This document shows, in pieces, positions 1,944 through 57,896 of a DNA stretch of 64,000 nucleotides (position 1 is its first letter; each line of letters opens with the position of its first letter). The position numbers and the translations under genes were made by a program. Location: the NCBI GenBank assembly GCA_947623925.1, contig CANQID010000001.1, forward strand, positions 130,684 to 194,683, given 5' to 3'. The notes under the pieces were generated by a model that was not told the DNA's origin, ran no database searches, and worked only from the letters and a program-made list of their open reading frames with translations. Source of the DNA: an uncultured Bacilli bacterium. Its GTDB lineage: Bacteria; Bacillota_I; Bacilli_A; RF39; UBA660.

Positions 1944-2978
1944 TTAATTTTGTCTTTTTATAAGATATACTTCTTTAATTTTTGATCTATCGTTTTTATT
2001 TTCTTTAAAACAATTAAGTATTATTTGTCTACTTATATTATCATCATCATAATGTTTTTTTAAATAAAATTCTTCTGTAATATATTTATTAAATTCACTA
2101 TTAAGAACAGATAAATATTCTTCATTTATTAGTAAAAATCCAGATTTCATTAAGCACTGTCTTAATATGCAAGCAATTGTTTTATCAACATTAGAATAAT
2201 CTATATTATTCATTTCTATAATTTCTGAAATTTGTTTAGTTGATACTTTTATACCATGAAAAGTTTTAAGTGAATTATAAATTTCTAAATTAGTTTGTGT
2301 TATATCTGCAATAAAACGAGAACTTGTATAAAAATTTTTTGGAATTTTAAATTTATTTTTTTTAATATATTGTTCAATATTTTTATTTATAAAAACTATA
2401 TTATATTTAGATTTAATCAGTTTTTCTTTATATAAATTATAATTTTGTTCATCTATATAATCTTGTAAAAAATTAACAAATCCATTCATAATATCTTTTT
2501 CAAATGCTTTTTTTAATTCTATATTATTATAAACTGAAATATCATTTATATTATTTATATAAAATTCTTCACATAAATTAATTAATTCATAAAGTTCCAT
2601 ATTTTTTATTGTTTTATAATCAGATAACTGTATATCAACTAATATATTAATTATTCTAATTAATACATTGTAATCATAGTTTTGCTCTAAAATATTTTCT
2701 ATATCAGATTTAAACTCATCTGGAAGTTTAAAAGAAATTATATAATTGATAATCATATTAGATTTTGCAAAATCTAAATTTGCTTCTTTATATAATTTAT
2801 CTTCTATTTCAGTAGCAATATCTAAATAATTTATAATTTTTTCATATTCTTCAGTATTATTTTTTTCATTAATTTCTAAAGTAATTAATTTCTTATATAA
2901 GTTTTCTATAGAAGTAGTAATATTAATTATTTTTTTTAGCCACTCATAATCTTTTTTTAATAACATATATTCTTGCAT
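1944..2978 (-). CDS. hypothetical protein (Asn/Ile/Lys-rich, no recognisable motif)
   Basis: long ORF co-oriented and tightly spaced after xseB; no motif recognised. Confidence 0.6.
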   Translation of the reverse strand: MQEYMLLKKDYEWLKKIINITTSIENLYKKLITLEINEKNNTEEYEKIINYLDIATEIEDKLYKEANLDFAKSNMIINYIISFKLPDEFKSDIENILEQNYDYNVLIRIINILVDIQLSDYKTIKNMELYELINLCEEFYINNINDISVYNNIELKKAFEKDIMNGFVNFLQDYIDEQNYNLYKEKLIKSKYNIVFINKNIEQYIKKNKFKIPKNFYTSSRFIADITQTNLEIYNSLKTFHGIKVSTKQISEIIEMNNIDYSNVDKTIACILRQCLMKSGFLLINEEYLSVLNSEFNKYITEEFYLKKHYDDDNISRQIILNCFKENKNDRSKIKEVYLIKRQN

Positions 2979-3006: not shown

Positions 3007-3228
3007 TTATTCTTCTATTTCAAAATCTTTTATTTCACCATTTTCAAGTACTATTTTATTAACTTGCTCTTCAATATTTTTTAATTTTTCATCACATTCT
3101 TTTATTAATTTCATTGCTTTAGTATATTTATTAATTGAATCATCTAAATCTATGTTTCCATTTTCAAGTTCATTTACTATAGTTTCTAATTCTTCCATCT
3201 TTTCTTCAAATTTTTTTTCTGTTTTCAT
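3007..3228 (-). CDS. xseB: exodeoxyribonuclease VII small subunit
   Basis: 73-aa coiled-coil protein immediately after xseA (1-nt gap); FEEKMEELETIVNELENG...L..S pattern typical of XseB. Confidence 0.9.
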   Translation of the reverse strand: MKTEKKFEEKMEELETIVNELENGNIDLDDSINKYTKAMKLIKECDEKLKNIEEQVNKIVLENGEIKDFEIEE

Positions 3229-3229
3229 A

Positions 3230-4498
3230 TTACTCCTTATCTATTACTTTTGATGTAATAAATCCATCATGTAATTTTATTTTAATTATTTCATTTTTAC
3301 TAATATCATTAATTGATTTAACTAATTTGTCATTTTTATAAGTTAAAGTATATCCTTTTTTAAGTATACTAAGTGGATTAACAAGTTCTAACTTTTGTAT
3401 TAAATTTAATAATTTTACTTTCTTATTTTCATATAAAATATTTGGATTTTTAATTATATAATTGTTTTTTAAATTATCAATCTCAAGTTTTTTTGTAGAT
3501 AAATTTATAAAAATACTTTTATTCAAATTTTCATATAGTAAATCAATTTTTTGTTTTTTATTTTCATATATTAACATTGGATTTTTAATTATAAATGAAT
3601 TTTTAAGTGTATCTAATTTTAATTTTTCATAATTTAGTTTTGTATTTATACTTTCATTTATTCTTATATTTAAATTATTTATATGTTTCATAATATCAGT
3701 TATATTTGGTACAGCCATTTCAGCAGCACCGGTAGGTGTGGGTGCACGAAGATCTGCAACAAAATCTGCTATTGTAAAGTCAATTTCATGCCCTACAGCG
3801 CTTATTGTTGGTATTTTAGATGCAAAAATAGCACGTGCTACTTTTTCTTCATTAAAAGGCCACAAATCTTCTATAGAGCCTCCACCTCTGCCAATTATTA
3901 ACACATCTAAATCATAATTTTGAGAAATATTAATTTTTTCAACTAAATCATCTGCTGCATTTTCTCCTTGAACTAAACTTGGGAATAAATATGTTTTACA
4001 TATAGGATATCTTCTTTTTATAGTTGAAATTATATCTTTTATTGCCGCACCAGTAGAAGCTGTAATAATTCCTATTTTTTCTGGAATTTTTGGTATTTTT
4101 TTCTTTTTATCTTTATCAAATAATCCTTCAAGTTCAAGTTTCTTTTTTAATTTTTCAAATTCTAAATATAGATTTCCTATACCATCTTCCATCATTTCAT
4201 CAACGTATATTTGATAGTTTCCTGTTGATTCATATACACTAACTCTACCAACTATTAATATTTTCATTCCATCAACTGGATTAAAGTTTAATTTTTTTGC
4301 ATTTGAACTAAACATAATTGCGTTTATTTTGCTTGTTTCATCTTTTATGGAAAAATACAAATGCCCTGTTGTATGCATTTTAAAATTAGAAATTTCGCCT
4401 TTTAAAAATACTAATTTTAAATGTTCATCATTATCCATTTTAAATTTTATATATTTTGTTAATGCAGTAACTGTTAAGTATTTATTTACATCATTCAT
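3230..4498 (-). CDS. xseA: exodeoxyribonuclease VII large subunit
   Basis: OB-fold N-terminus (LKGEISNFKMHTTGHLYFSIKDE), catalytic core GRGGGSIEDLWPFNEE. Confidence 0.95.
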   Translation of the reverse strand: MNDVNKYLTVTALTKYIKFKMDNDEHLKLVFLKGEISNFKMHTTGHLYFSIKDETSKINAIMFSSNAKKLNFNPVDGMKILIVGRVSVYESTGNYQIYVDEMMEDGIGNLYLEFEKLKKKLELEGLFDKDKKKKIPKIPEKIGIITASTGAAIKDIISTIKRRYPICKTYLFPSLVQGENAADDLVEKINISQNYDLDVLIIGRGGGSIEDLWPFNEEKVARAIFASKIPTISAVGHEIDFTIADFVADLRAPTPTGAAEMAVPNITDIMKHINNLNIRINESINTKLNYEKLKLDTLKNSFIIKNPMLIYENKKQKIDLLYENLNKSIFINLSTKKLEIDNLKNNYIIKNPNILYENKKVKLLNLIQKLELVNPLSILKKGYTLTYKNDKLVKSINDISKNEIIKIKLHDGFITSKVIDKE

Positions 4499-4506
4499 AT
4501 TACCAC

Positions 4507-4917
4507 CTACTTATTATGGAGAATATTATCCATAACAGCATTTATCATGTTTTTTACTTTTTCATCACTATATTTTTTAGCAAGTTCAATTGCTTCATTT
4601 ATCGCAACAACATCTGGAGTATCAGTATATAATAATTCAAATATACCAATTCTAAGTATAGCTTGATCTGTATAGCCCAATCTATCTATTGTCCAATCAT
4701 TCATATTTTTGTTTGCAATATCATCTATTTCATTTTTGTATGTAATAACACCATATACTGTTTCTTTTACAAATTCATTATCTATTTCAAGTGTTTCTTT
4801 AAATATATCATCTAGATTATATTCTATTTTATTTTTTTCATATATACTTATTTGATATAAAATTGTCATTATTTTTATTCTTAATTCACTTCTATTTAAT
4901 TGTTTCATTGTACTCAC
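4507..4917 (-). CDS. nusB: transcription antitermination factor NusB
   Basis: 136 aa, NusB-like helices (RIKIMTILYQ..., AILRIGIFELLY, INEAIELAKKY); conserved position upstream of xseA. Confidence 0.9.
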   Translation of the reverse strand: MSTMKQLNRSELRIKIMTILYQISIYEKNKIEYNLDDIFKETLEIDNEFVKETVYGVITYKNEIDDIANKNMNDWTIDRLGYTDQAILRIGIFELLYTDTPDVVAINEAIELAKKYSDEKVKNMINAVMDNILHNK

Positions 4918-4966
4918 CTATTTAATTTTACCAAAAGTGTTGTATAAAATCTATAAAAATTTAAAA

Positions 4967-5509
4967 TTATTTATTTTTTGGATGATAAAAATAAGAAATA
5001 AATTTTGAGAAAATATATAAAATGTTATTTCCATTTTTTATTGCAATATCTTTTCCCATTGCTTTACCACCTATCGTTAATGATGCAATTAATGCAGTAA
5101 CTATTAAACTTATAATAAGTGGATTTACATTTAATTTTGAAGAAATTAGAGTTGCAACTACAACACCAGCAGAACCAGAAATAATACCACATATATCTCC
5201 AACTACATCGTTACAAAAAGATGATACTTTTGCAGCATTTTTTTTAAGTTTTACCGCTACATCAGCACCTTTTATTTTCCTTGAATTCATGGAATGAATA
5301 GGTTTTTCATCACTTACTGTTACTGAAATACCAATCATATCAAATATTACTCCAATTAGTATAAATAAAATTAAAATAATGATACCTATAATAATATTTA
5401 CATTATTTAAAGTAAGTTCTGAAATTAATGAAAAGGTTAATGAAATTACGAAGGCTAAAATTGTTATTTTTATAATCCAAATTGCATTGTTATTTTTCTT
5501 TTTTTTCAT
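4967..5509 (-). CDS. oapA: 4-TM membrane protein, candidate OLE-associated protein A
   Basis: 180 aa (~20 kDa), four predicted TM helices, acidic NDVVGD motif in the central loop; GAGGTG RBS; lies directly downstream of the candidate OLE RNA as described for OapA. Confidence 0.55.
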   Translation of the reverse strand: MKKKKNNNAIWIIKITILAFVISLTFSLISELTLNNVNIIIGIIILILFILIGVIFDMIGISVTVSDEKPIHSMNSRKIKGADVAVKLKKNAAKVSSFCNDVVGDICGIISGSAGVVVATLISSKLNVNPLIISLIVTALIASLTIGGKAMGKDIAIKNGNNILYIFSKFISYFYHPKNK

Positions 5510-5521
5510 ATTTCACCTCTA

Positions 5522-6135
5522 ATGAAAAATAAAAAGGGTATTTATCCCCTTTATTACTCTTGCCTGGCTATTAATGTAATTAACTTTACGTCTTAGGTCG
5601 AGTTGGATTTCCCCTATTCTTACAATATGTTACCATATTTGCGGTTCCCCTTTAAAAGAATAGATATATAGTCACCTATTATATTACTCGATTGCCACTT
5701 AGTACGCACTGCAATCCTACATTAATGTCACTCTAGGAGATTTCCTCCCCAATTGATTTATTAATAATTCTTTTTTGCAGATACAATTTCAAAATGCGAT
5801 TTTTAAATAATTTTAGCTATAAATTACTTAAAATTGCTCATTTATTCCAAATATCCACTCAAGACAAGCTACACTACTCATAACTTTCGCCACAAAGTAG
5901 GTTCAAGCCTAAGTCGTAATAAGTCAGAGTGCTTACCACAAAAATAGGTCTCCATGAGAAATGGGTCGGTAAACATATGCCATTATGTGCGCCCATAACT
6001 CTACCTTTCAGCATCCACCCCAAACTGGGCGTAAGAAGCAAACACCAAAAGTTTCACAGATGTGCTCTTTAACGGATTTTTAGCCCCGTCTTCCTAATAA
6101 ATCATATTGACTAGAATAATGTGCCAATCAATATA
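5522..6135 (-). ncRNA. ole: large structured ncRNA, best explained as OLE (ornate, large, extremophilic) RNA
   Basis: ~610 nt with no ORF in any frame and visibly higher GC than all surroundings; own promoter; followed by a 4-TM protein inside a nusB-xseA-xseB operon (published OLE/oapA synteny); lacks RNase P, tmRNA and group II intron signature motifs. Confidence 0.6.
5524..5552 (-). terminator. weak terminator-like hairpin at the 3' end of the large ncRNA
   Basis: minus strand aaaggg-gataaata-cccttt followed by TTATTTTT, just upstream of the oapA RBS; short stem. Confidence 0.35.
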
Positions 6136-6140
6136 TATAA

Positions 6141-6169
6141 ATTGTATCAGATTTACACTTTTTTGTCAA
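6141..6169 (-). promoter_or_regulatory. sigma-A type promoter for the large ncRNA
   Basis: minus strand TTGACA - 17 nt - TACAAT with TGa extended -10. Confidence 0.7.
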
Positions 6170-6304
6170 ATTTGATGTATTTTTTTAAAAATTTATAAAA
6201 AAATATTTACTTTTACCATATTATATGCATTGGGTAAAAATTCATAATAGATATTTATTAAAATATTTAAATTTATACTATTTTAATATAACAAAAACTT
6301 AAAA

Positions 6305-6694
6305 TTATTTTAATTTTAAGTTTAATATTTTTCTTAATTGCTCAACACTATCAAATTTTCCATCTTTAGATGATGCTTGTAATTTTCTAATAACTAATAT
6401 AAGTTTAGTTATTACTGCTATAAAACTTGCAATTATAAATATTGCGCCATATATTTTAACATTTATACTCATTAAATAAACACCAAGTAATAAAAGTATA
6501 AATCCTATTAATACTGTAATAATTATAATTGTTCTTTCTTTTGAAGTATTTTCTAAATAAGTTATTTTTTGTTTTAAATATTCTATTTGTTCTTGTTTAG
6601 AAATATTCATATCTTCCATTGTACCAATAATATTATTATATATTATTTCATTTTTATTTTTTTCAGTTCCATTAAAATTTACTTTTACATCCAT
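6305..6694 (-). CDS. hypothetical membrane protein (coiled-coil N-terminus, 2 TM)
   Basis: ORF with GGAGGG RBS; hydrophobic segments VLIGFILLLLGVYLM and AIFIIASFIAVI. Confidence 0.6.
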   Translation of the reverse strand: MDVKVNFNGTEKNKNEIIYNNIIGTMEDMNISKQEQIEYLKQKITYLENTSKERTIIIITVLIGFILLLLGVYLMSINVKIYGAIFIIASFIAVITKLILVIRKLQASSKDGKFDSVEQLRKILNLKLK

Positions 6695-6765
6695 AACCTC
6701 TACCCTCCATAATAAGTATATAAAAAATTAAAACTAAAATCAAGTAAAAAGAAAAAAATATATAA

Positions 6766-7152
6766 TTAATTAATATATTTTTCTCCATTTCCTATATATA
6801 AACGATATAGAATATCTATTTGTATATAAATAGACATTATAATAGCAACAATCCAACCAATAATTGGAATAATTACGCATATTATCCATGTATAAGGTGA
6901 TAAGTATATTTCCTTACCTGAAACTTCTAATTTGGCTGCTGTTTTGCACATAATTTCTAAGTAAAATATAAATATCATTATTAAGAGTGGGAATATAAAT
7001 GGTATTCCTAGTACCCAATAATACCATTTTCTATACCATGCATTTTTTCTATAAACATCAAGTAAAGCACCTAATACTAATGTACTACTACCACTTGAAA
7101 ATAAAGTTAATAATAACCAAATCCACCAATTTTCTTTTTTTAATATTTTCAT
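6766..7152 (-). CDS. hypothetical integral membrane protein
   Basis: 4 hydrophobic helices; start overlaps mtaD stop by 4 nt (translational coupling). Confidence 0.6.
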   Translation of the reverse strand: MKILKKENWWIWLLLTLFSSGSSTLVLGALLDVYRKNAWYRKWYYWVLGIPFIFPLLIMIFIFYLEIMCKTAAKLEVSGKEIYLSPYTWIICVIIPIIGWIVAIIMSIYIQIDILYRLYIGNGEKYIN

Positions 7153-15050: not shown

Positions 15051-15222
15051 AAAAAAGCCTAAGGATGTAGGTGTTCGAAACGATAAACCCTGTCTACCAG
15101 GTGGGCATCACATTACAAACTTTAGGATTCCTTTATAAAAGGTCTTCAACACCGTCTGTAAATTAGATTCCCAATCGTTTACTTGTAGGTTTTTCTTAAC
15201 AAACACTTTTTTATCCTTAGGT
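15051..15222 (-). ncRNA. ssrS: candidate 6S RNA
   Basis: ~170-nt ORF-free GC-richer block; 5' ACCUAAGGAU..GUGUUUG..AAACGAU pairs with 3' AUCGUUU-CGAACAC..AUCCUUAGG giving a long interrupted rod, then a U-run; extended -10 promoter; sits upstream of tcdA, as I recall for B. subtilis bsrA. Confidence 0.5.
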
Positions 15223-15228
15223 AATTTT

Positions 15229-18245: not shown

Positions 18246-19904
18246 CTAAAACTTTTCAATTAATTTATTATATCTATTTTCTACTCTTTCTTTACCAAAC
18301 AAATTCATTATTTCATATAAATCCGGAGTATTTGATTTACTAGTTAATGCAACTCTTAAGACAGTTGCTATATCGGCAACATTACCTTTAAATAATTCTG
18401 GATTGTTTTTATATTCTTTCATGTTACTTGCATACCCTAATTCATCTGCAAGTTTTTTTACCTTATCAAACCAAGATTCTTGACTTTCTACATTATAATA
18501 TTTTGAAATATAAGTTTTTAATATTTTTTTAATTTCTTCTTTGTCTGTTATTTTTTGCCATTCATATTCTAAATCTTTATTAAAATATATATCATCATAC
18601 ATATACCATATTAAATTTTCAATATCATAATATTTAGCTATATCTTTTCTTGGTTTTACTTTTTCTCTTTCGATATTTAAAATTGAAGTATAATATTTTT
18701 TATCTTTTTCAATTATTGAAGTTAATGATTCACTATATTTTTTTGCCCATTCGTATGATTTTTCAAATAGTTCTTTTGCACTCATTTTAGATATTATATC
18801 TTTAGAAATATTATCTAATTTATCTAAATCATATAATGCTCCTGAAGAGGACATTTTTTCAGGATTAAATTTAAAATCTAAAAATGTTTTATCTGGATTT
18901 TCTGTATGCCAAATTTCATAATTAGAATTTATAATAGTCATAAGTGATTCAATAACAGCTAATGTTGGATAACCTAATTCATCATAATAACTCATTGATG
19001 CTTCTGGATCTTTTCTTTTTGATATTTTTCTAATGCTTCCACCATCTTTTTTAACAATTAAAGGTGTATGTATATACTTAGGTGGCTCAAAACCAAAAGC
19101 TTCAAACATTTGTATATGTTTTGTAACTGATGGTAGCCATTCCTCTCCTCTTACAACATGTGTTGTATGCATTAAATAATCATCAACAACATGTGCGAAA
19201 TGATAAGTTGGAAGTAAATTATCACTTTTCATTATTACATCATCTATATCGTTTTCATTTAAGTGAAGTCTACCTTTTACTAAATCATTAAAAATTATTT
19301 TATTTTCAAAATCACCGTTTGATCTAAATCTTATTACATATGGTTCATTATTTTTTATTCTTTTAATAGCCTCATCTACACTCATATTATTACAACGAGC
19401 AAATCTTCCATAATATCCTGGTCTCATTTTTCTTTCTTCTTGAGTACTTCTCATTTCGTTTATTTCATCTTTAGTACAAAAGCAAGGATAAGCTCTGCCA
19501 ATTTCTATTAAATGTTTAATAAATGTATGATATATTTCTTTTCTTTCACTTTGTATATAAGGACCGTATTCTCCAACTATTTCTCCTTTATATTCGTATT
19601 CATCTGGAATAATATCATAATGTTTTAATGTTTCCATAATTAATTCTACTGCTTTATCTACTTCTCTTTTTTGATCAGTATCTTCATTTCTAAGATAAAA
19701 TATTCCATTTGAACTTTTTGCTATATTAAAATCAATTAATGCTTGAAAAAATCCTCCTAAATGCATATAACCTGTTGGAGAAGGTGCGAAACGAGTAACA
19801 CATGCTCCTTCATCTAATTTCCTTTTTGGATACATTTTCTCATAATCTTCAATTGTTTTTGTAATATTTGGAAATATTAAATCAGCTAAATCTTTATTTG
19901 TCAT
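18246..19904 (-). CDS. gltX: glutamate--tRNA ligase (long form, 552 aa)
   Basis: class I motifs PSPTGYMHLGG (HIGH) and KISKRK (KMSKS), LRNEDTDQKRE; start moved to ATG 19904 (AAGGAG RBS) because the longer track ORF runs into tRNA-Gln. Confidence 0.85.
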   Translation of the reverse strand: MTNKDLADLIFPNITKTIEDYEKMYPKRKLDEGACVTRFAPSPTGYMHLGGFFQALIDFNIAKSSNGIFYLRNEDTDQKREVDKAVELIMETLKHYDIIPDEYEYKGEIVGEYGPYIQSERKEIYHTFIKHLIEIGRAYPCFCTKDEINEMRSTQEERKMRPGYYGRFARCNNMSVDEAIKRIKNNEPYVIRFRSNGDFENKIIFNDLVKGRLHLNENDIDDVIMKSDNLLPTYHFAHVVDDYLMHTTHVVRGEEWLPSVTKHIQMFEAFGFEPPKYIHTPLIVKKDGGSIRKISKRKDPEASMSYYDELGYPTLAVIESLMTIINSNYEIWHTENPDKTFLDFKFNPEKMSSSGALYDLDKLDNISKDIISKMSAKELFEKSYEWAKKYSESLTSIIEKDKKYYTSILNIEREKVKPRKDIAKYYDIENLIWYMYDDIYFNKDLEYEWQKITDKEEIKKILKTYISKYYNVESQESWFDKVKKLADELGYASNMKEYKNNPELFKGNVADIATVLRVALTSKSNTPDLYEIMNLFGKERVENRYNKLIEKF

Positions 19905-19942
19905 ACCTTTCTCCTTTATATAAAAATAATTAATTAACAAAT

Positions 19943-20017
19943 TGGCTGCCCTAGTTAGATTCGAACTAACGCATGTCGGAGTCAGAGTCCGATGCCTTAC
20001 CGCTTGGCTATAGGGCA
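19943..20017 (-). tRNA. tRNA-Gln (anticodon CUG)
   Basis: TGCCCTATAGCCAAGCGGTAAGGC... with U1-A72, anticodon loop CTCTGAC, TTCGAAT T-loop, encoded CCA. Confidence 0.85.
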
Positions 20018-20168
20018 ATATAACATATTAATTTTATCATACTTTTATATAAAAATTAACATTTTAGTAAAAAAAAGACAAACTTTTTTTGTTGTTATTT
20101 AAAACTTAAAAATTATTTTATTAATTAATAACTTAACATTTACATTTATTCAGTTACAAAAAAAAGAA

Positions 20169-44144: not shown

Positions 44145-44295
44145 TTTTAAATTCATGATTTAGCGCCAGGTCTAAATAGATGACGAGGATAACAGTTATC
44201 GAAAATTCGGCGGATACTGTTACGGTTGAATATGATCGTTAGATATATAACAAAAAGTAAAATCAAAATTACTACAAAATATATATCACATATTA
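44145..44295 (+). promoter_or_regulatory. glmS ribozyme (GlcN6P-dependent self-cleaving riboswitch)
   Basis: core AGCGCCAGG...GACGAGGAT...GTTATCGAAAATTCGGCGGATAC matches the conserved glmS ribozyme core; directly upstream of glmS. Confidence 0.9.
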
Positions 44296-44310
44296 TAAAG
44301 GAGAAATTTT

Positions 44311-46119
44311 ATGTGTGGTATTGTTGGTTATATTGGAAAAAAATATAACGCTTTAAATGTCCTTATTGAAGGACTTGAACGCCTTGAATATAGAGGATAT
44401 GATTCGGCTGGTATAGCCTATATTGATAATAATAAATTAAATATAATTAAAGAAAAAGGAAAAATAAAAAATTTAAAGTCAAAAATAAATTTTGATATAA
44501 AATCAAATTTAGGAATTGGGCATACAAGATGGGCAACTCATGGTATTGCGAACAAAGAAAATAGTCATCCACATAAAGTAGGAAAAATAACTATTGTACA
44601 TAATGGTATAATAGAAAATTATGAGCAATTAAAAGAAAATCTAAAAAACAGTGTAAATTTTAAATCTGAAACAGATACAGAAGTTGCGTGTGCATTATTA
44701 AATAAATTATATGAAGAAACGAATAATATGAATGAAACTCTAATAATGTTTCAAAAACAAGTAAAAGGTGCATATGCAATGGGTATAATATGTGATGATG
44801 ATTATAATACAATGTATGCAATTAAAAACAAAAGCCCACTTATTATAGGAACAGGTAAAGATGAAAATTACATTGCATCTGATGTCCCTGCTATACTTAA
44901 ATTCACAAATAAATATATAATATTAGATGATGGTGAATTTGCAAAAATAAATAGTGATGAAATCACTTGTTATAAAGGAAATAATATTATTAAAAAAGAA
45001 GAAAAAATATTTGAAGGAACTGCTGAAGATATAGAAAAAAATGGATATGAACATTTCATGTTAAAAGAAATAAATGAACAACCAGAAGTTTTTAAAAAAA
45101 CTGTTTCTGAATATATTTCAAATGGTATTGATAGTCTAATTGAAAAAATGCCTGATTTTTCAAAATATAAAAATATAAAAATAGTTGCATGTGGAAGTGC
45201 AATGCACGCTGGATGTATTGGTAAAAATTTAATAGAAGAATTTGCAAATATTCCTGTAGATGTTGAAATTGCAAGTGAATTTAGGTATAAAAAACTTTTT
45301 ATTGATAAAGAAACTTTAGTAATTTTAATTTCACAGTCAGGTGAAACTGCAGATACATTAGCAGCACTTGAAATAGCAAAAGAAAAAGGTTGTGACACTT
45401 TAGGTATTATAAATGTATATGGAAGTAGTATTGCTAGAAATTCTGATGTAGTATTATATACAAAAGCAGGAAGTGAAATAGCAGTTGCAACTACTAAAGC
45501 ATATTTTGCTCAAGTAGCATTACTCTCTTTAATAGCTTTAAAAATTGCTAATTCTAATAATTTAGTAAAATCAGATGAATTAAAAGAAATATTGTCAGAA
45601 ATGAGAAATCTACCTATCAAAATTCAAAATTTATTGGATAGAAAAAATGAATTTAAAAATATTGCAGAAAAGATTTATAAAAACAATGACATTTTCTTCA
45701 TAGGAAGAGATGTAGATTATTCACTTTCTATGGAAGGTTCTCTTAAACTTAAAGAAATTTCTTATATTAATAGTCAAGCATATGCAGCAGGAGAATTAAA
45801 ACATGGTACTATTTCACTAATAGAAGATGGGACTCCTGTTATATCAATTGTAACAAAAGAAAGCATTGCAGAAAAAACTATAAGTAATATTAAAGAAGTT
45901 AAATCTAGAGGAGCAAATGTAATTTTAGTTACAACTGAAAAACTAGATAAACAATCTGATTTTTATGATTATAAAATAGTTGTTCCTAATACTCATAAAT
46001 TATTACAACCTTTACTTGCTATTGTGCCTTTACAATTATTATCATACGAAATAGCCAAATTGAGAGATTGTAATATAGATAAACCTAAAAATTTAGCTAA
46101 ATCAGTTACAGTAGAATAA
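44311..46119 (+). CDS. glmS: glutamine--fructose-6-phosphate aminotransferase
   Basis: MCGIVGY N-terminal nucleophile, two SIS domains, C-terminal KSVTVE. Confidence 0.97.
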   Translation: MCGIVGYIGKKYNALNVLIEGLERLEYRGYDSAGIAYIDNNKLNIIKEKGKIKNLKSKINFDIKSNLGIGHTRWATHGIANKENSHPHKVGKITIVHNGIIENYEQLKENLKNSVNFKSETDTEVACALLNKLYEETNNMNETLIMFQKQVKGAYAMGIICDDDYNTMYAIKNKSPLIIGTGKDENYIASDVPAILKFTNKYIILDDGEFAKINSDEITCYKGNNIIKKEEKIFEGTAEDIEKNGYEHFMLKEINEQPEVFKKTVSEYISNGIDSLIEKMPDFSKYKNIKIVACGSAMHAGCIGKNLIEEFANIPVDVEIASEFRYKKLFIDKETLVILISQSGETADTLAALEIAKEKGCDTLGIINVYGSSIARNSDVVLYTKAGSEIAVATTKAYFAQVALLSLIALKIANSNNLVKSDELKEILSEMRNLPIKIQNLLDRKNEFKNIAEKIYKNNDIFFIGRDVDYSLSMEGSLKLKEISYINSQAYAAGELKHGTISLIEDGTPVISIVTKESIAEKTISNIKEVKSRGANVILVTTEKLDKQSDFYDYKIVVPNTHKLLQPLLAIVPLQLLSYEIAKLRDCNIDKPKNLAKSVTVE

Positions 46120-57009: not shown

Positions 57010-57050
57010 TAATTCTTAATTATTATGCGTCACAAATATAAAACAACAAT

Positions 57051-57098
57051 AAAAGAGACTATCTCAAAATTAAATAATTAATTTTAAGATGTCTCTTA
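57051..57098 (+). terminator. long hairpin terminator after the DUF218 gene
   Basis: aaagagactatctcaaaattaa-ataa-ttaattttaagatgtctctt (about 20 bp with mismatches) followed by ATTTTAT. Confidence 0.55.
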
Positions 57099-57337
57099 TT
57101 TTATATTTTTAACTAGATTTATCTATAATTACGACGTTGCAATAATAACTTAATATATTTTATTTATTATTTTTTGCAATTTTTTTGATATTCAGTACTG
57201 TTATTTTTATCATTTATAATTGAATCATAATATAACAAGTTAAGGCTTTATTATTAATTCTAAGCCATTAGTCATATAAAAAATAATTTTATTATAATAA
57301 TAACCATCAGTAGAAATATTAATCATAGAACACCAAC

Positions 57338-57565
57338 CTATTTTTCGTATTCTTTGGTAAAAGAACTAACTAAAAAATCTATAATATTATCATAAATTCC
57401 TTTGATATCATAAATTTTCTTAACTCTAAAACTTTCCCCTATTCTACTACTATTAGGATTAAAATCTAAACTATAAATTTCATGATGTCAATTAATTATA
57501 TCTATCTCATCATTTGAAATAGTACTAATATTTCTTCTATTTTCATTATCATCAACACCATAAAG
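57338..57565 (-). pseudogene. decayed ORF fragment behind a copy of the toxin-locus terminator
   Basis: hand translation LYGVDDNENRRNISTISNDEIDIIN*HHEIYSLDFNPNSSRIGESFRVKKIYDIKGIYDNIIDFLVSSFTKEYEK* has an in-frame TGA (57488-57490) and no ATG. Confidence 0.3.
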
Positions 57566-57698
57566 AAAACTCCATCTATGATGAAGTTTTTTCTATGTTT
57601 TTAACATGTATTTTTGAATTATTTATGTTTATTATTTATTACAGAAAAATAGGGTTCTATTCTAAAATAAACGGCTTACAAAATAATAATCATAATAA

Positions 57699-57727
57699 TT
57701 GACAATAAAAAATTTATTATCTATAAT
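57699..57727 (+). promoter_or_regulatory. consensus promoter upstream of the ABC exporter
   Basis: TTGACA - 17 nt - TATAAT, perfect match to both hexamers. Confidence 0.75.
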
Positions 57728-57896
57728 ATAATAAATTTAAAAAGTGAAGCAGAATAATAGTTTTATTAAACCTACAAAAATAATCTTATTTTGTTAATTA
57801 AATTAGAAATTAGAATATTATTATCTCACATTATATTATATTCTTTTTTCTAGACTGTTATTTTTAGCAATTTTTTACTTATTAGGAGAAATTATT

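Follow-up and report, generated by a model that had tools for sequence, protein, structure and literature searches.

We analyzed a 64-kb stretch of DNA (64,000 nucleotides (nt), contig CANQID010000001.1 of an uncultured Bacilli bacterium; hereafter the window), and we found that its minus strand from 6169 to 4967 almost certainly carries an OLE ribonucleoprotein locus, in which ole, the gene for a structured non-coding RNA, stands directly upstream of oapA, the gene for its membrane protein partner OapA (positions are those of the whole window, and the locus lies on the minus strand). A first-pass annotation made from the sequence letters had proposed such a locus, naming a covariance-model search and a comparison with OapA as ways to check it, and both came out in its favor: the Rfam OLE model RF01071 matched the minus strand at full length, untruncated, with 388.9 bits (E = 9.5e-111; gathering score 50 bits) and no competing family, and the 180-amino acid (aa) protein encoded immediately downstream proved to be a homologue of a reference OapA (171 residues aligned, E = 9e-33). 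The interval is thus to be annotated as ole and the 180-aa open reading frame (ORF) as oapA. The features of the locus are as follows.

6141–6169, minus strand: ole promoter, sigma-70-type (TTGACA at 6169–6164, 17-nt spacer, TG at 6149–6148, TACAAT at 6146–6141)
5548–6143, minus strand: OLE RNA gene, RF01071 match to model positions 1–616
5525–5552, minus strand: terminator-like hairpin and U-run (7 base pairs (bp), AAAGGGG-loop-CCCUUUU, at 5552–5532; U-run UUUUUAUUUUU at 5535–5525)
4967–5509, minus strand: oapA, 180 aa (ATG at 5509; ribosome-binding site (RBS) AGAGGUG at 5520–5514)

In the transcribed alignment, the window RNA formed canonical pairs at 140 of the 159 pairs of the RF01071 model (88%), and it was identical to the consensus at 207 of the 249 strongly conserved (upper-case) nucleotides (the family criterion for near-invariance is that ~25% of OLE nucleotides are >97% conserved). 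The primary OLE transcript probably extends from ~6134 to ~5525, roughly 610 nt. GC content was 35% for the Rfam-matched interval and 23.8% for the whole window, and segments of 200 nt ran at 30–43% GC over 5500–6100 vs. 15–25% on the flanks, as the first reading of the interval as GC-richer than its surroundings had it. That reading had also held that nowhere else in the window does an ORF-free stretch exceed 5522–6135 in length, which was mistaken: the 887 nt of 57010–57896 exceed it, mechanical ORFs of 55 aa (5874–6041, minus strand) and 47 aa (5929–6072, plus strand) lie within the OLE interval, and at a threshold of at least 60 aa the gap 5510–6304 (795 nt) ranks second longest in the window. 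The error leaves the conclusion intact; the Rfam signal is far beyond chance.

The window RNA keeps the OLE fold and the predicted sites for its partners

Literature stem names were mapped to the Rfam model via the papers on OapB, on OapC and on the cryo-electron microscopy (cryo-EM) structures (PMC7936274, PMC9723947, PMC12286853, PMC12265935). We found that the window OLE keeps the secondary structure of the family (P3–P10 and P12–P15) and its conserved loops; the elements are listed here from the 5′ end.

6095–6110, minus strand: P3 5′ strand, UCAAUAUGAUUUAUUA, pairing with 5763–5749
6071–6090, minus strand: P4a hairpin, loop L4 CUAAAAAU at 6083–6076
6052–6070, minus strand: J4a/5 k-turn strand, AAAGAGCACAUC-UGU-GAAA (canonical-helix C, 3-nt bulge, GA)
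6051–6005, minus strand: P5 (Rfam alignment), loop L5 GCCCA conserved
6001–5956, minus strand: P6 (Rfam alignment), loop L6 AAUGGCAU conserved
5947–5955, minus strand: J6/7 k-turn partner strand, AUGGAGACC, containing GGAGA
5948–5908, minus strand: P7, 41 nt
5900–5874, minus strand: P8, 27 nt
5864–5769, minus strand: P9 domain, 96 nt (palindromic loop L9.3, UAGCUA, at 5819–5814)
5749–5763, minus strand: P3 3′ strand, UAAUAAAUCAAUUGG
5747–5737, minus strand: P10 (Rfam alignment)
5716–5735, minus strand: J10/12, site of the missing P11 hairpin (12-nt deletion, model 424–435)
5726–5570, minus strand: P12–P15 (Rfam alignment)
5664–5685, minus strand: P13, 8 bp with a single bulged A and a GUGA tetraloop at 5675–5672

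The long-range helix P3, which closes domain 1 and has been proposed to span the membrane (PMC12265935), carries no annotation in Rfam; in the window it comprises 10 + 5 bp (15 bp) with one bulge. L4 and P4a are the proposed docking site of OapA, with the A-tract of L4 forming an A–A dimer bridge, B1 (PMC12286853, PMC12265935), and U62 and A63–A66 of L4 are invariant in the 68-sequence alignment described below. For the k-turn, defined previously (PMC9723947, PMC12286853) and paired with J6/7 in the cryo-EM model (PMC12286853), the elements C, 3-nt bulge, GA and GGAG of the predicted OapC site are all present, and departures of J4a/5 from the consensus (model 86–87) are confined to the 3-nt bulge. 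OapB recognition in H. halodurans depends on the P13 GNRA tetraloop and on one bulged nucleotide beside P12.2 (PMC7936274); the window P13 has a GUGA loop and a bulge that together form a predicted OapB site, the bulged base being an A at the consensus position vs. a U in H. halodurans. P14.1 likewise keeps a GNRA loop, GUAA, within 5638–5625.

The loop L9.3 is the kissing loop of the homodimer (bridge B3), and its switching from GGCC to GAUC or AGCU has been presented as evidence for intermolecular pairing (PMC12286853). Nearly all of the 68 aligned sequences have a palindromic tetranucleotide at this place (GGCC, AGCU or GUAC), and the window, with a self-complementary L9.3 and the L4 A-tract, retains both predicted homodimer contacts. 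With L4, L9.3, the k-turn elements and P13 kept, the window RNA seems fitted to interact with all of its known partners. We considered the AGCU of the window as a novelty and rejected it, as the cryo-EM paper already lists AGCU (PMC12286853). Three other loci (L016, L027 and L029) have GUAC, a palindrome outside the GGCC/GAUC/AGCU set of that paper, and this too fits intermolecular pairing.

The 180-aa protein is OapA

Sequence and predicted fold together identify the 180-aa ORF as OapA. The protein is 37% identical over 171 aa (BLASTP) to the reference OapA sequence taken from the supplement of PMC12286853, with which it shares FCNDV(V/I)GD and from which it differs, beyond that level of identity, in a short lysine-rich N-terminus; it is 54% identical to the OLE-adjacent protein of Clostridium subterminale. 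The description given at first pass, a protein with four transmembrane (TM) segments and an NDVVGD motif, proved accurate: hydropathy showed four hydrophobic segments, an AlphaFold2 model (predicted local distance difference test score, pLDDT, 81.7) placed four long helices at residues 8–34, 39–65, 92–126 and 130–158, and the DxxxD motif is DVVGD at residues 101–105, with D101 and D105 invariant in 50 homologues. The TM2–TM3 loop (residues 66–95) is basic, with eight K/R and three D/E in 30 residues, and we assumed it to be cytoplasmic.

OapA has been described as a protein of four TM helices, weakly CNNM-like, with a DxxxD motif not shared by CNNM domains (PMC11332333). For the window protein, the Pfam CNNM/DUF21 model PF01595 gave 18.4 bits, under its gathering cut-off of 28.4, and NCBIfam gave no match; a PDB sequence search returned no match even at E ≤ 1, and we therefore compared folds. 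The top four Foldseek matches of the model in the PDB were 7M1T (two chains), 7M1U and 7CFF (probability 1.00, TM-score 0.48–0.58), which are CNNM/CorB/CorC transmembrane domains, and 7M1U is also the reported structural neighbor of H. halodurans OapA (PMC11332333). The likeness to the CNNM/MpfA/CorB/CorC Mg2+ transporters is thus clear in fold and weak in sequence; however, unlike MpfA, CorB and CorC, the 180-aa protein has neither CBS nor CorC_HlyC domains.

According to PMC12265935, which cites Block et al. 2011 for it, OapA binds OLE RNA at a ratio of at least 2:1 and tethers the RNA to the membrane. By homology with the systems from which roles for the OLE particle have been proposed (PMC11332333, PMC12286853, PMC12265935), and by analogy with the OLE RNAs of H. 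halodurans and Clostridium in particular, the window RNA would homodimerize through the L4 A-tract, L5–L7 and the palindromic L9.3, and would dock in the membrane on dimers of OapA, with its four TM helices and CNNM-like predicted fold, beside helix P3. The resulting particle may aid adaptation to stresses, among them alcohols, cold, a surplus of Mg2+ and poor carbon sources.

Relatives show covariation and stronger constraint on the RNA than on oapA

We scanned the 180-aa protein against one genome per GTDB species, which yielded 80 loci, and in ~75 of them nhmmer with the window RNA placed an OLE homologue on the strand of the oapA homologue and upstream of it. The exceptions were loci at contig ends and three others (L034, L052 and L066; oapA homologues 58–61% identical), in which neither nhmmer nor Rfam detected an OLE in the locus, 6 kb upstream included; either ole lies elsewhere in these genomes or they are rare OapA-only cases.

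The 68 OLE sequences of our MAFFT alignment (A2), read with the Rfam-derived structure, were paired in 91.5% of cells vs. 38–46% with slid partners, and 115 of the 140 pairs had changes on both sides; none of 500 shuffles reached the observed values. More than 100 columns are invariant across the 68 sequences, and the window shares all of them. For P3, 70.8% of cells were paired vs. 36–60% with slid partners, and the family-wide support for this helix is moderate because gaps in the MAFFT alignment blur its variable region. Compared with the nearest relative (L001), the OLE RNA is 94–95% identical in nucleotides and oapA 79–81%, which argues for selection on the RNA and for a stronger constraint on it than on oapA.

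The nearest genomes are uncultured gut metagenome-assembled genomes (MAGs); their hosts include rabbit and mouse, and they carry the labels Bacilli, Tenericutes, Mollicutes or Bacillota. Dozens of GTDB species in this low-GC gut-MAG clade have very similar OLE RNAs, and OLE in reduced-genome gut lineages has been surveyed already (Fernando and Breaker 2024, PMC11332333); the special comparative value that the first-pass annotation saw in the locus is accordingly weak. What we describe is a known RNA–protein system with clade-typical peculiarities and many near relatives in public data, and it leaves knowledge of the family unchanged. OLE is among the largest conserved bacterial non-coding RNAs without a known biochemical function, and well-delimited variants are therefore useful comparative data.

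Two observations concern the other branches of the alignment. In the high-GC Oscillospiraceae (L035, L043, L045, L046, L048 and others; A2 columns 149–183 and 335–360), the OLE has an extra hairpin between P5 and P6, and P8 measures 47–50 nt vs. 27–30 nt. In the Clostridium argentinense locus (L044), a RAGATH-18 RNA (75.7 bits) occupies 1048–1113, ~1.3 kb upstream of OLE.

A conserved promoter and a weak terminator-like hairpin flank the RNA

The ole promoter matches the consensus at 11 of 12 positions, has a TG at −15/−14 (extended −10) and an A/T-rich tract upstream, and is the best site in 4400–6800. The scan of that interval as a whole showed no enrichment (20 sites vs. 22.2 in shuffles), and because the scan alone does no better than shuffles, support for the promoter comes from its positional conservation: most low-GC relatives have TTGACA-17-TGnTAnAAT at a constant spacing from the conserved 5′ motif of OLE, and the Clostridium loci likewise keep a TG-extended −10. 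The TTGACA-17-TGaTACAAT promoter read from the minus strand at first pass thus holds, and from its position we infer a transcription start near 6134.

At the other end, the hairpin and U-run already noticed directly before the RBS have a minimum free energy of −10.5 kcal/mol (z = −2.35). A post-OLE hairpin and U-run are found in many relatives, with unrelated stem sequences, others have a U-run only, and a few add a separate oapA promoter after the U-run. A dedicated promoter and a weak terminator before oapA are conserved features in the low-GC clade. In the window, the hairpin probably marks the OLE 3′ end and acts as a leaky terminator: it would end most transcripts, yielding abundant free OLE RNA, and because the U-run stops only ~5 nt short of the oapA RBS, which leaves no space for a separate promoter, read-through would supply oapA and probably nusB-xseAB as well, so that one promoter would deliver RNA in excess of protein.

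The same arrangement could be taken to mean that the element is mainly a cis-acting leader or attenuator of oapA-nusB-xseAB and not a stable trans-acting RNA. The short spacing without room for an oapA promoter, the terminator-like hairpin directly before oapA and the transcription of the H. halodurans cluster as a single polycistronic RNA (PMC12265935) all suit that explanation. However, a covarying, family-wide structure of ~600 nt goes far beyond the needs of an attenuator, three loci (L004, L026 and L035) combine an OLE with an oapA that is served by a separate promoter or sits 3–4 kb away, and the genes downstream vary among relatives while the ole-oapA pair persists. We regard a mainly cis-acting role as improbable, and it would in any case be compatible with an OLE ribonucleoprotein locus and no replacement for it.

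The RNA lacks P11 and appears to fit neither published OLE variant

Several points weigh against identifying 6169–4967 as an OLE ribonucleoprotein locus. The Rfam scores, on a scale that we calibrated with the comparator loci (published cut-offs for full-length and variant OLEs belong to their authors' own model), fall at 360–422 bits in the low-GC clade, with the window in the middle of the clade at 388.9, vs. 500–539 in cultured Clostridium/Papillibacter. In the window RNA, 19 RF01071 pairs are non-canonical or deleted and the P11 hairpin is gone. The terminator hairpin is weak, and its counterpart in L001 folds no better than shuffles (z = −0.21); the division of transcripts between termination and read-through is itself only what we infer. 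Finally, tblastn of the 64-kb window found no homologue of OapC (ybxF) or RpsU (bS21), a result that is uninformative as these genes usually lie elsewhere; in the complete OLE particle, these two proteins are partners alongside OapB (ybzG).

Should the window OLE be a decaying, non-functional relic in a reduced genome, an Rfam score under those of canonical OLEs, the loss of P11 and a P7 shorter than in sister species would be expected, and apparently defective ole genes do occur in some organisms (PMC11332333). Such defective copies, however, occur where OapA is absent, whereas the window has an intact oapA that retains every invariant residue; 88% of the model pairs are retained and substitutions in the clade are compensatory; the OLE is better conserved than the adjacent coding DNA, and its promoter is conserved; and the loss of P11 is common to the whole clade and therefore an old, tolerated change. 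A relic is in our view very unlikely. A reading of the interval as some other large structured RNA, or as a GC-rich non-coding spacer merely resembling OLE, can be practically dismissed, as OLE is its sole Rfam match, end to end, and nhmmer with the window RNA retrieves Clostridium and Oscillospiraceae regions that Rfam also calls OLE.

For the OLE RNA that we thus recognize here, P11 is missing as it is from all OLEs of the low-GC clade (L001–L037, L050, L062 and L069; A2 columns ~538–556); the Clostridium and Oscillospiraceae loci have it. The loss of P11 goes unmentioned in the text of the cited OLE papers. The window P7 is 41 nt long vs. 55–59 nt in the closest relatives, whose distal segment of ~15–18 nt it lacks, and is similar in size to that of Clostridium (44 nt); like it, P8 (27 nt) and P9 (96 nt) come close to the size of the Rfam consensus. 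Some clade members have a truncated P7 (15–33 nt) or P9 (54–56 nt). In two low-GC loci (L024 and L069), the distal ~40 nt of P9 are gone, the L9.3 kissing loop included, leaving a P9 of 54–56 nt, and one dimer bridge therefore seems dispensable in some lineages.

In its length of ~600 nt, P3–P10 and P12–P15, L4 CUAAAAAU, L5 GCCCA and L6 AAUGGCAU, palindromic L9.3, k-turn elements, P13 GUGA loop with its bulge, and oapA directly downstream, the window OLE resembles the full-length OLEs of H. halodurans, C. acetobutylicum and C. botulinum. Unlike these, it has no P11 and AT-rich helices (35% GC), and its L9.3 is AGCU and not GGCC, which is a known alternative (PMC12286853); its score is 388.9 bits vs. 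500–539 for cultured Clostridium and Papillibacter copies. Two variants have been described previously: variant 1 (TANB77 type) has shortened P7–P9, often misses the OapB site and scores 310–390 bits with its authors' model, and variant 2 (RF39 type) is without P7 and P8 (PMC11332333). The window OLE shares with both a host from a very low-GC uncultured gut lineage and a reduced covariance-model score. However, its P7 and P8 are not absent, as variant 2 would have them, but measure 41 and 27 nt; and against variant 1, its stems are near consensus and the OapB site is kept, with P7 below that of sister species and the Rfam score in the lower cluster. Because P7, P8, P9 and the OapB site are all kept, it appears to fit neither variant, judged by their verbal definitions. 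The window also encodes SpoIVB, cell-wall and competence genes and a sub-threshold YlbJ-like protein, and the host genome is not an extreme minimal one. An AT-rich OLE that has no P11 and a short P7 yet keeps all elements tied to dimerization and to OapA, OapB and OapC binding suggests that P11 and distal P7 are dispensable.

ole-oapA heads a contracted gene cluster

Directly downstream of oapA, Pfam and NCBIfam annotation confirmed nusB, xseA and xseB on the same strand, as first annotated.

4507–4917, minus strand: nusB (start probably the ATG at 4908, giving 133 aa)
3230–4498, minus strand: xseA, exonuclease VII large subunit
3007–3228, minus strand: xseB, exonuclease VII small subunit

The gene order is ole-oapA-nusB-xseA-xseB-(344-aa protein)-spoIVB, tightly spaced through xseB. 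The first reading had set the locus inside a nusB-xseAB operon; the neighborhood was right, but ole-oapA stands at the head of nusB-xseA-xseB. It had also called the operon compact, without ispA or dxs beside it, and indeed none of ispA, dxs, tlyA, nadK and recN is found in the 64-kb window, and folD lies 34 kb from the locus. The order in C. subterminale, in contrast, is nusB-folD-xseA-xseB-ispA-ole-oapA-dxs-tlyA-nadK-(argR)-recN, and set against this classical order (nusB-folD-xseA-xseB-ispA-ole-oapA-dxs-tlyA-nadK-recN) the window neighborhood looks like a contracted and rearranged remnant of it. Among the relatives, the window gene order is found again only in L001; in L002, ole-oapA lies among cell-envelope genes. 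The classical isoprenoid/DNA-repair neighborhood can thus be reduced to nusB-xseAB or lost, with the ole-oapA pair persisting.

We entertain, tentatively and as a possibility that we consider doubtful, that ole-oapA in this low-GC gut lineage is a relocatable two-gene module with a distinct, undescribed, P11-less OLE subtype. The unrelated surroundings of ole-oapA in sister species (envelope genes in the case of L002, as opposed to the head of nusB-xseAB in the window) would fit such a module, as would the sharp fall, starting exactly at the ole promoter, in identity to a genome that is otherwise ~97–98% identical (see below), and if it is one, the ole promoter would also drive NusB and exonuclease VII, tying their expression to OLE transcription.

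The 344-aa protein between xseB and spoIVB (1944–2978, minus strand) has no Pfam or NCBIfam match, and its gene occupies the place that ispA...recN take in classical OLE clusters. It is 44% identical to its L001 counterpart vs. 86–92% for the flanking genes, and the gene is therefore fast-evolving.

Identity to the nearest relative breaks at the ole promoter

From 10908 to ~6300, the window is 96–100% identical in nucleotides to L001 (MAG Lapin-023__bin93), and a protein 15 kb upstream of that stretch is still 97% identical, whereas from the ole promoter to position 1 identity drops to 79–94%. At the junction, window 6243–6305 stands against L001 4600–5262, where L001 has an extra 200-aa ORF (4639–5241) that the window is without. 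The break suggests a recombination tract that imported a divergent ole-oapA-nusB-xseAB-spoIVB allele. A chimeric assembly joined through conserved OLE sequence is less likely: the divergence begins upstream of OLE, at a one-gene indel, and three independent samples hold the window haplotype at 100% identity. Three independent metagenome contigs (L081, L083 and L084) break off at 6049, inside OLE P5, and match the window at 100% identity from there downwards; another contig (L082) breaks off at 6038, with 98.4% identity. This suggests that assembly graphs branch in conserved OLE sequence where related strains co-occur.

Host and other features of the window

By Pfam and NCBIfam annotation, the window encodes SpoIVB, an FtsW/RodA-family protein, ComEC, an LCP transferase and an LtaS-like enzyme, together with a YlbJ-like protein (215 bits, under the NCBIfam cut-off of 304.65). 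This set points to a walled and probably spore-forming Firmicute as the host; OLE hosts belong to the Bacillota, and anaerobes or extremophiles are typical among them.

The longest stretch of the window without an ORF of at least 50 aa in any frame, 57010–57896, is very AT-rich, and searching it against Rfam up to E ≤ 1 returned nothing. A gene in decay is one possible reading, and a long spacer between genes, upstream of one for an ABC transporter, is another. Further RNA features in the window are the following.

44151–44297, plus strand: glmS ribozyme, directly upstream of glmS (44311–46119)
15052–15226, minus strand: 6S RNA
18066, 19946, 27176, 49065 and 49148: five tRNAs

The tRNA at 19946–20017 overlaps the mechanical ORF 18246–20018, and the N-terminal part of that ORF is therefore spurious.

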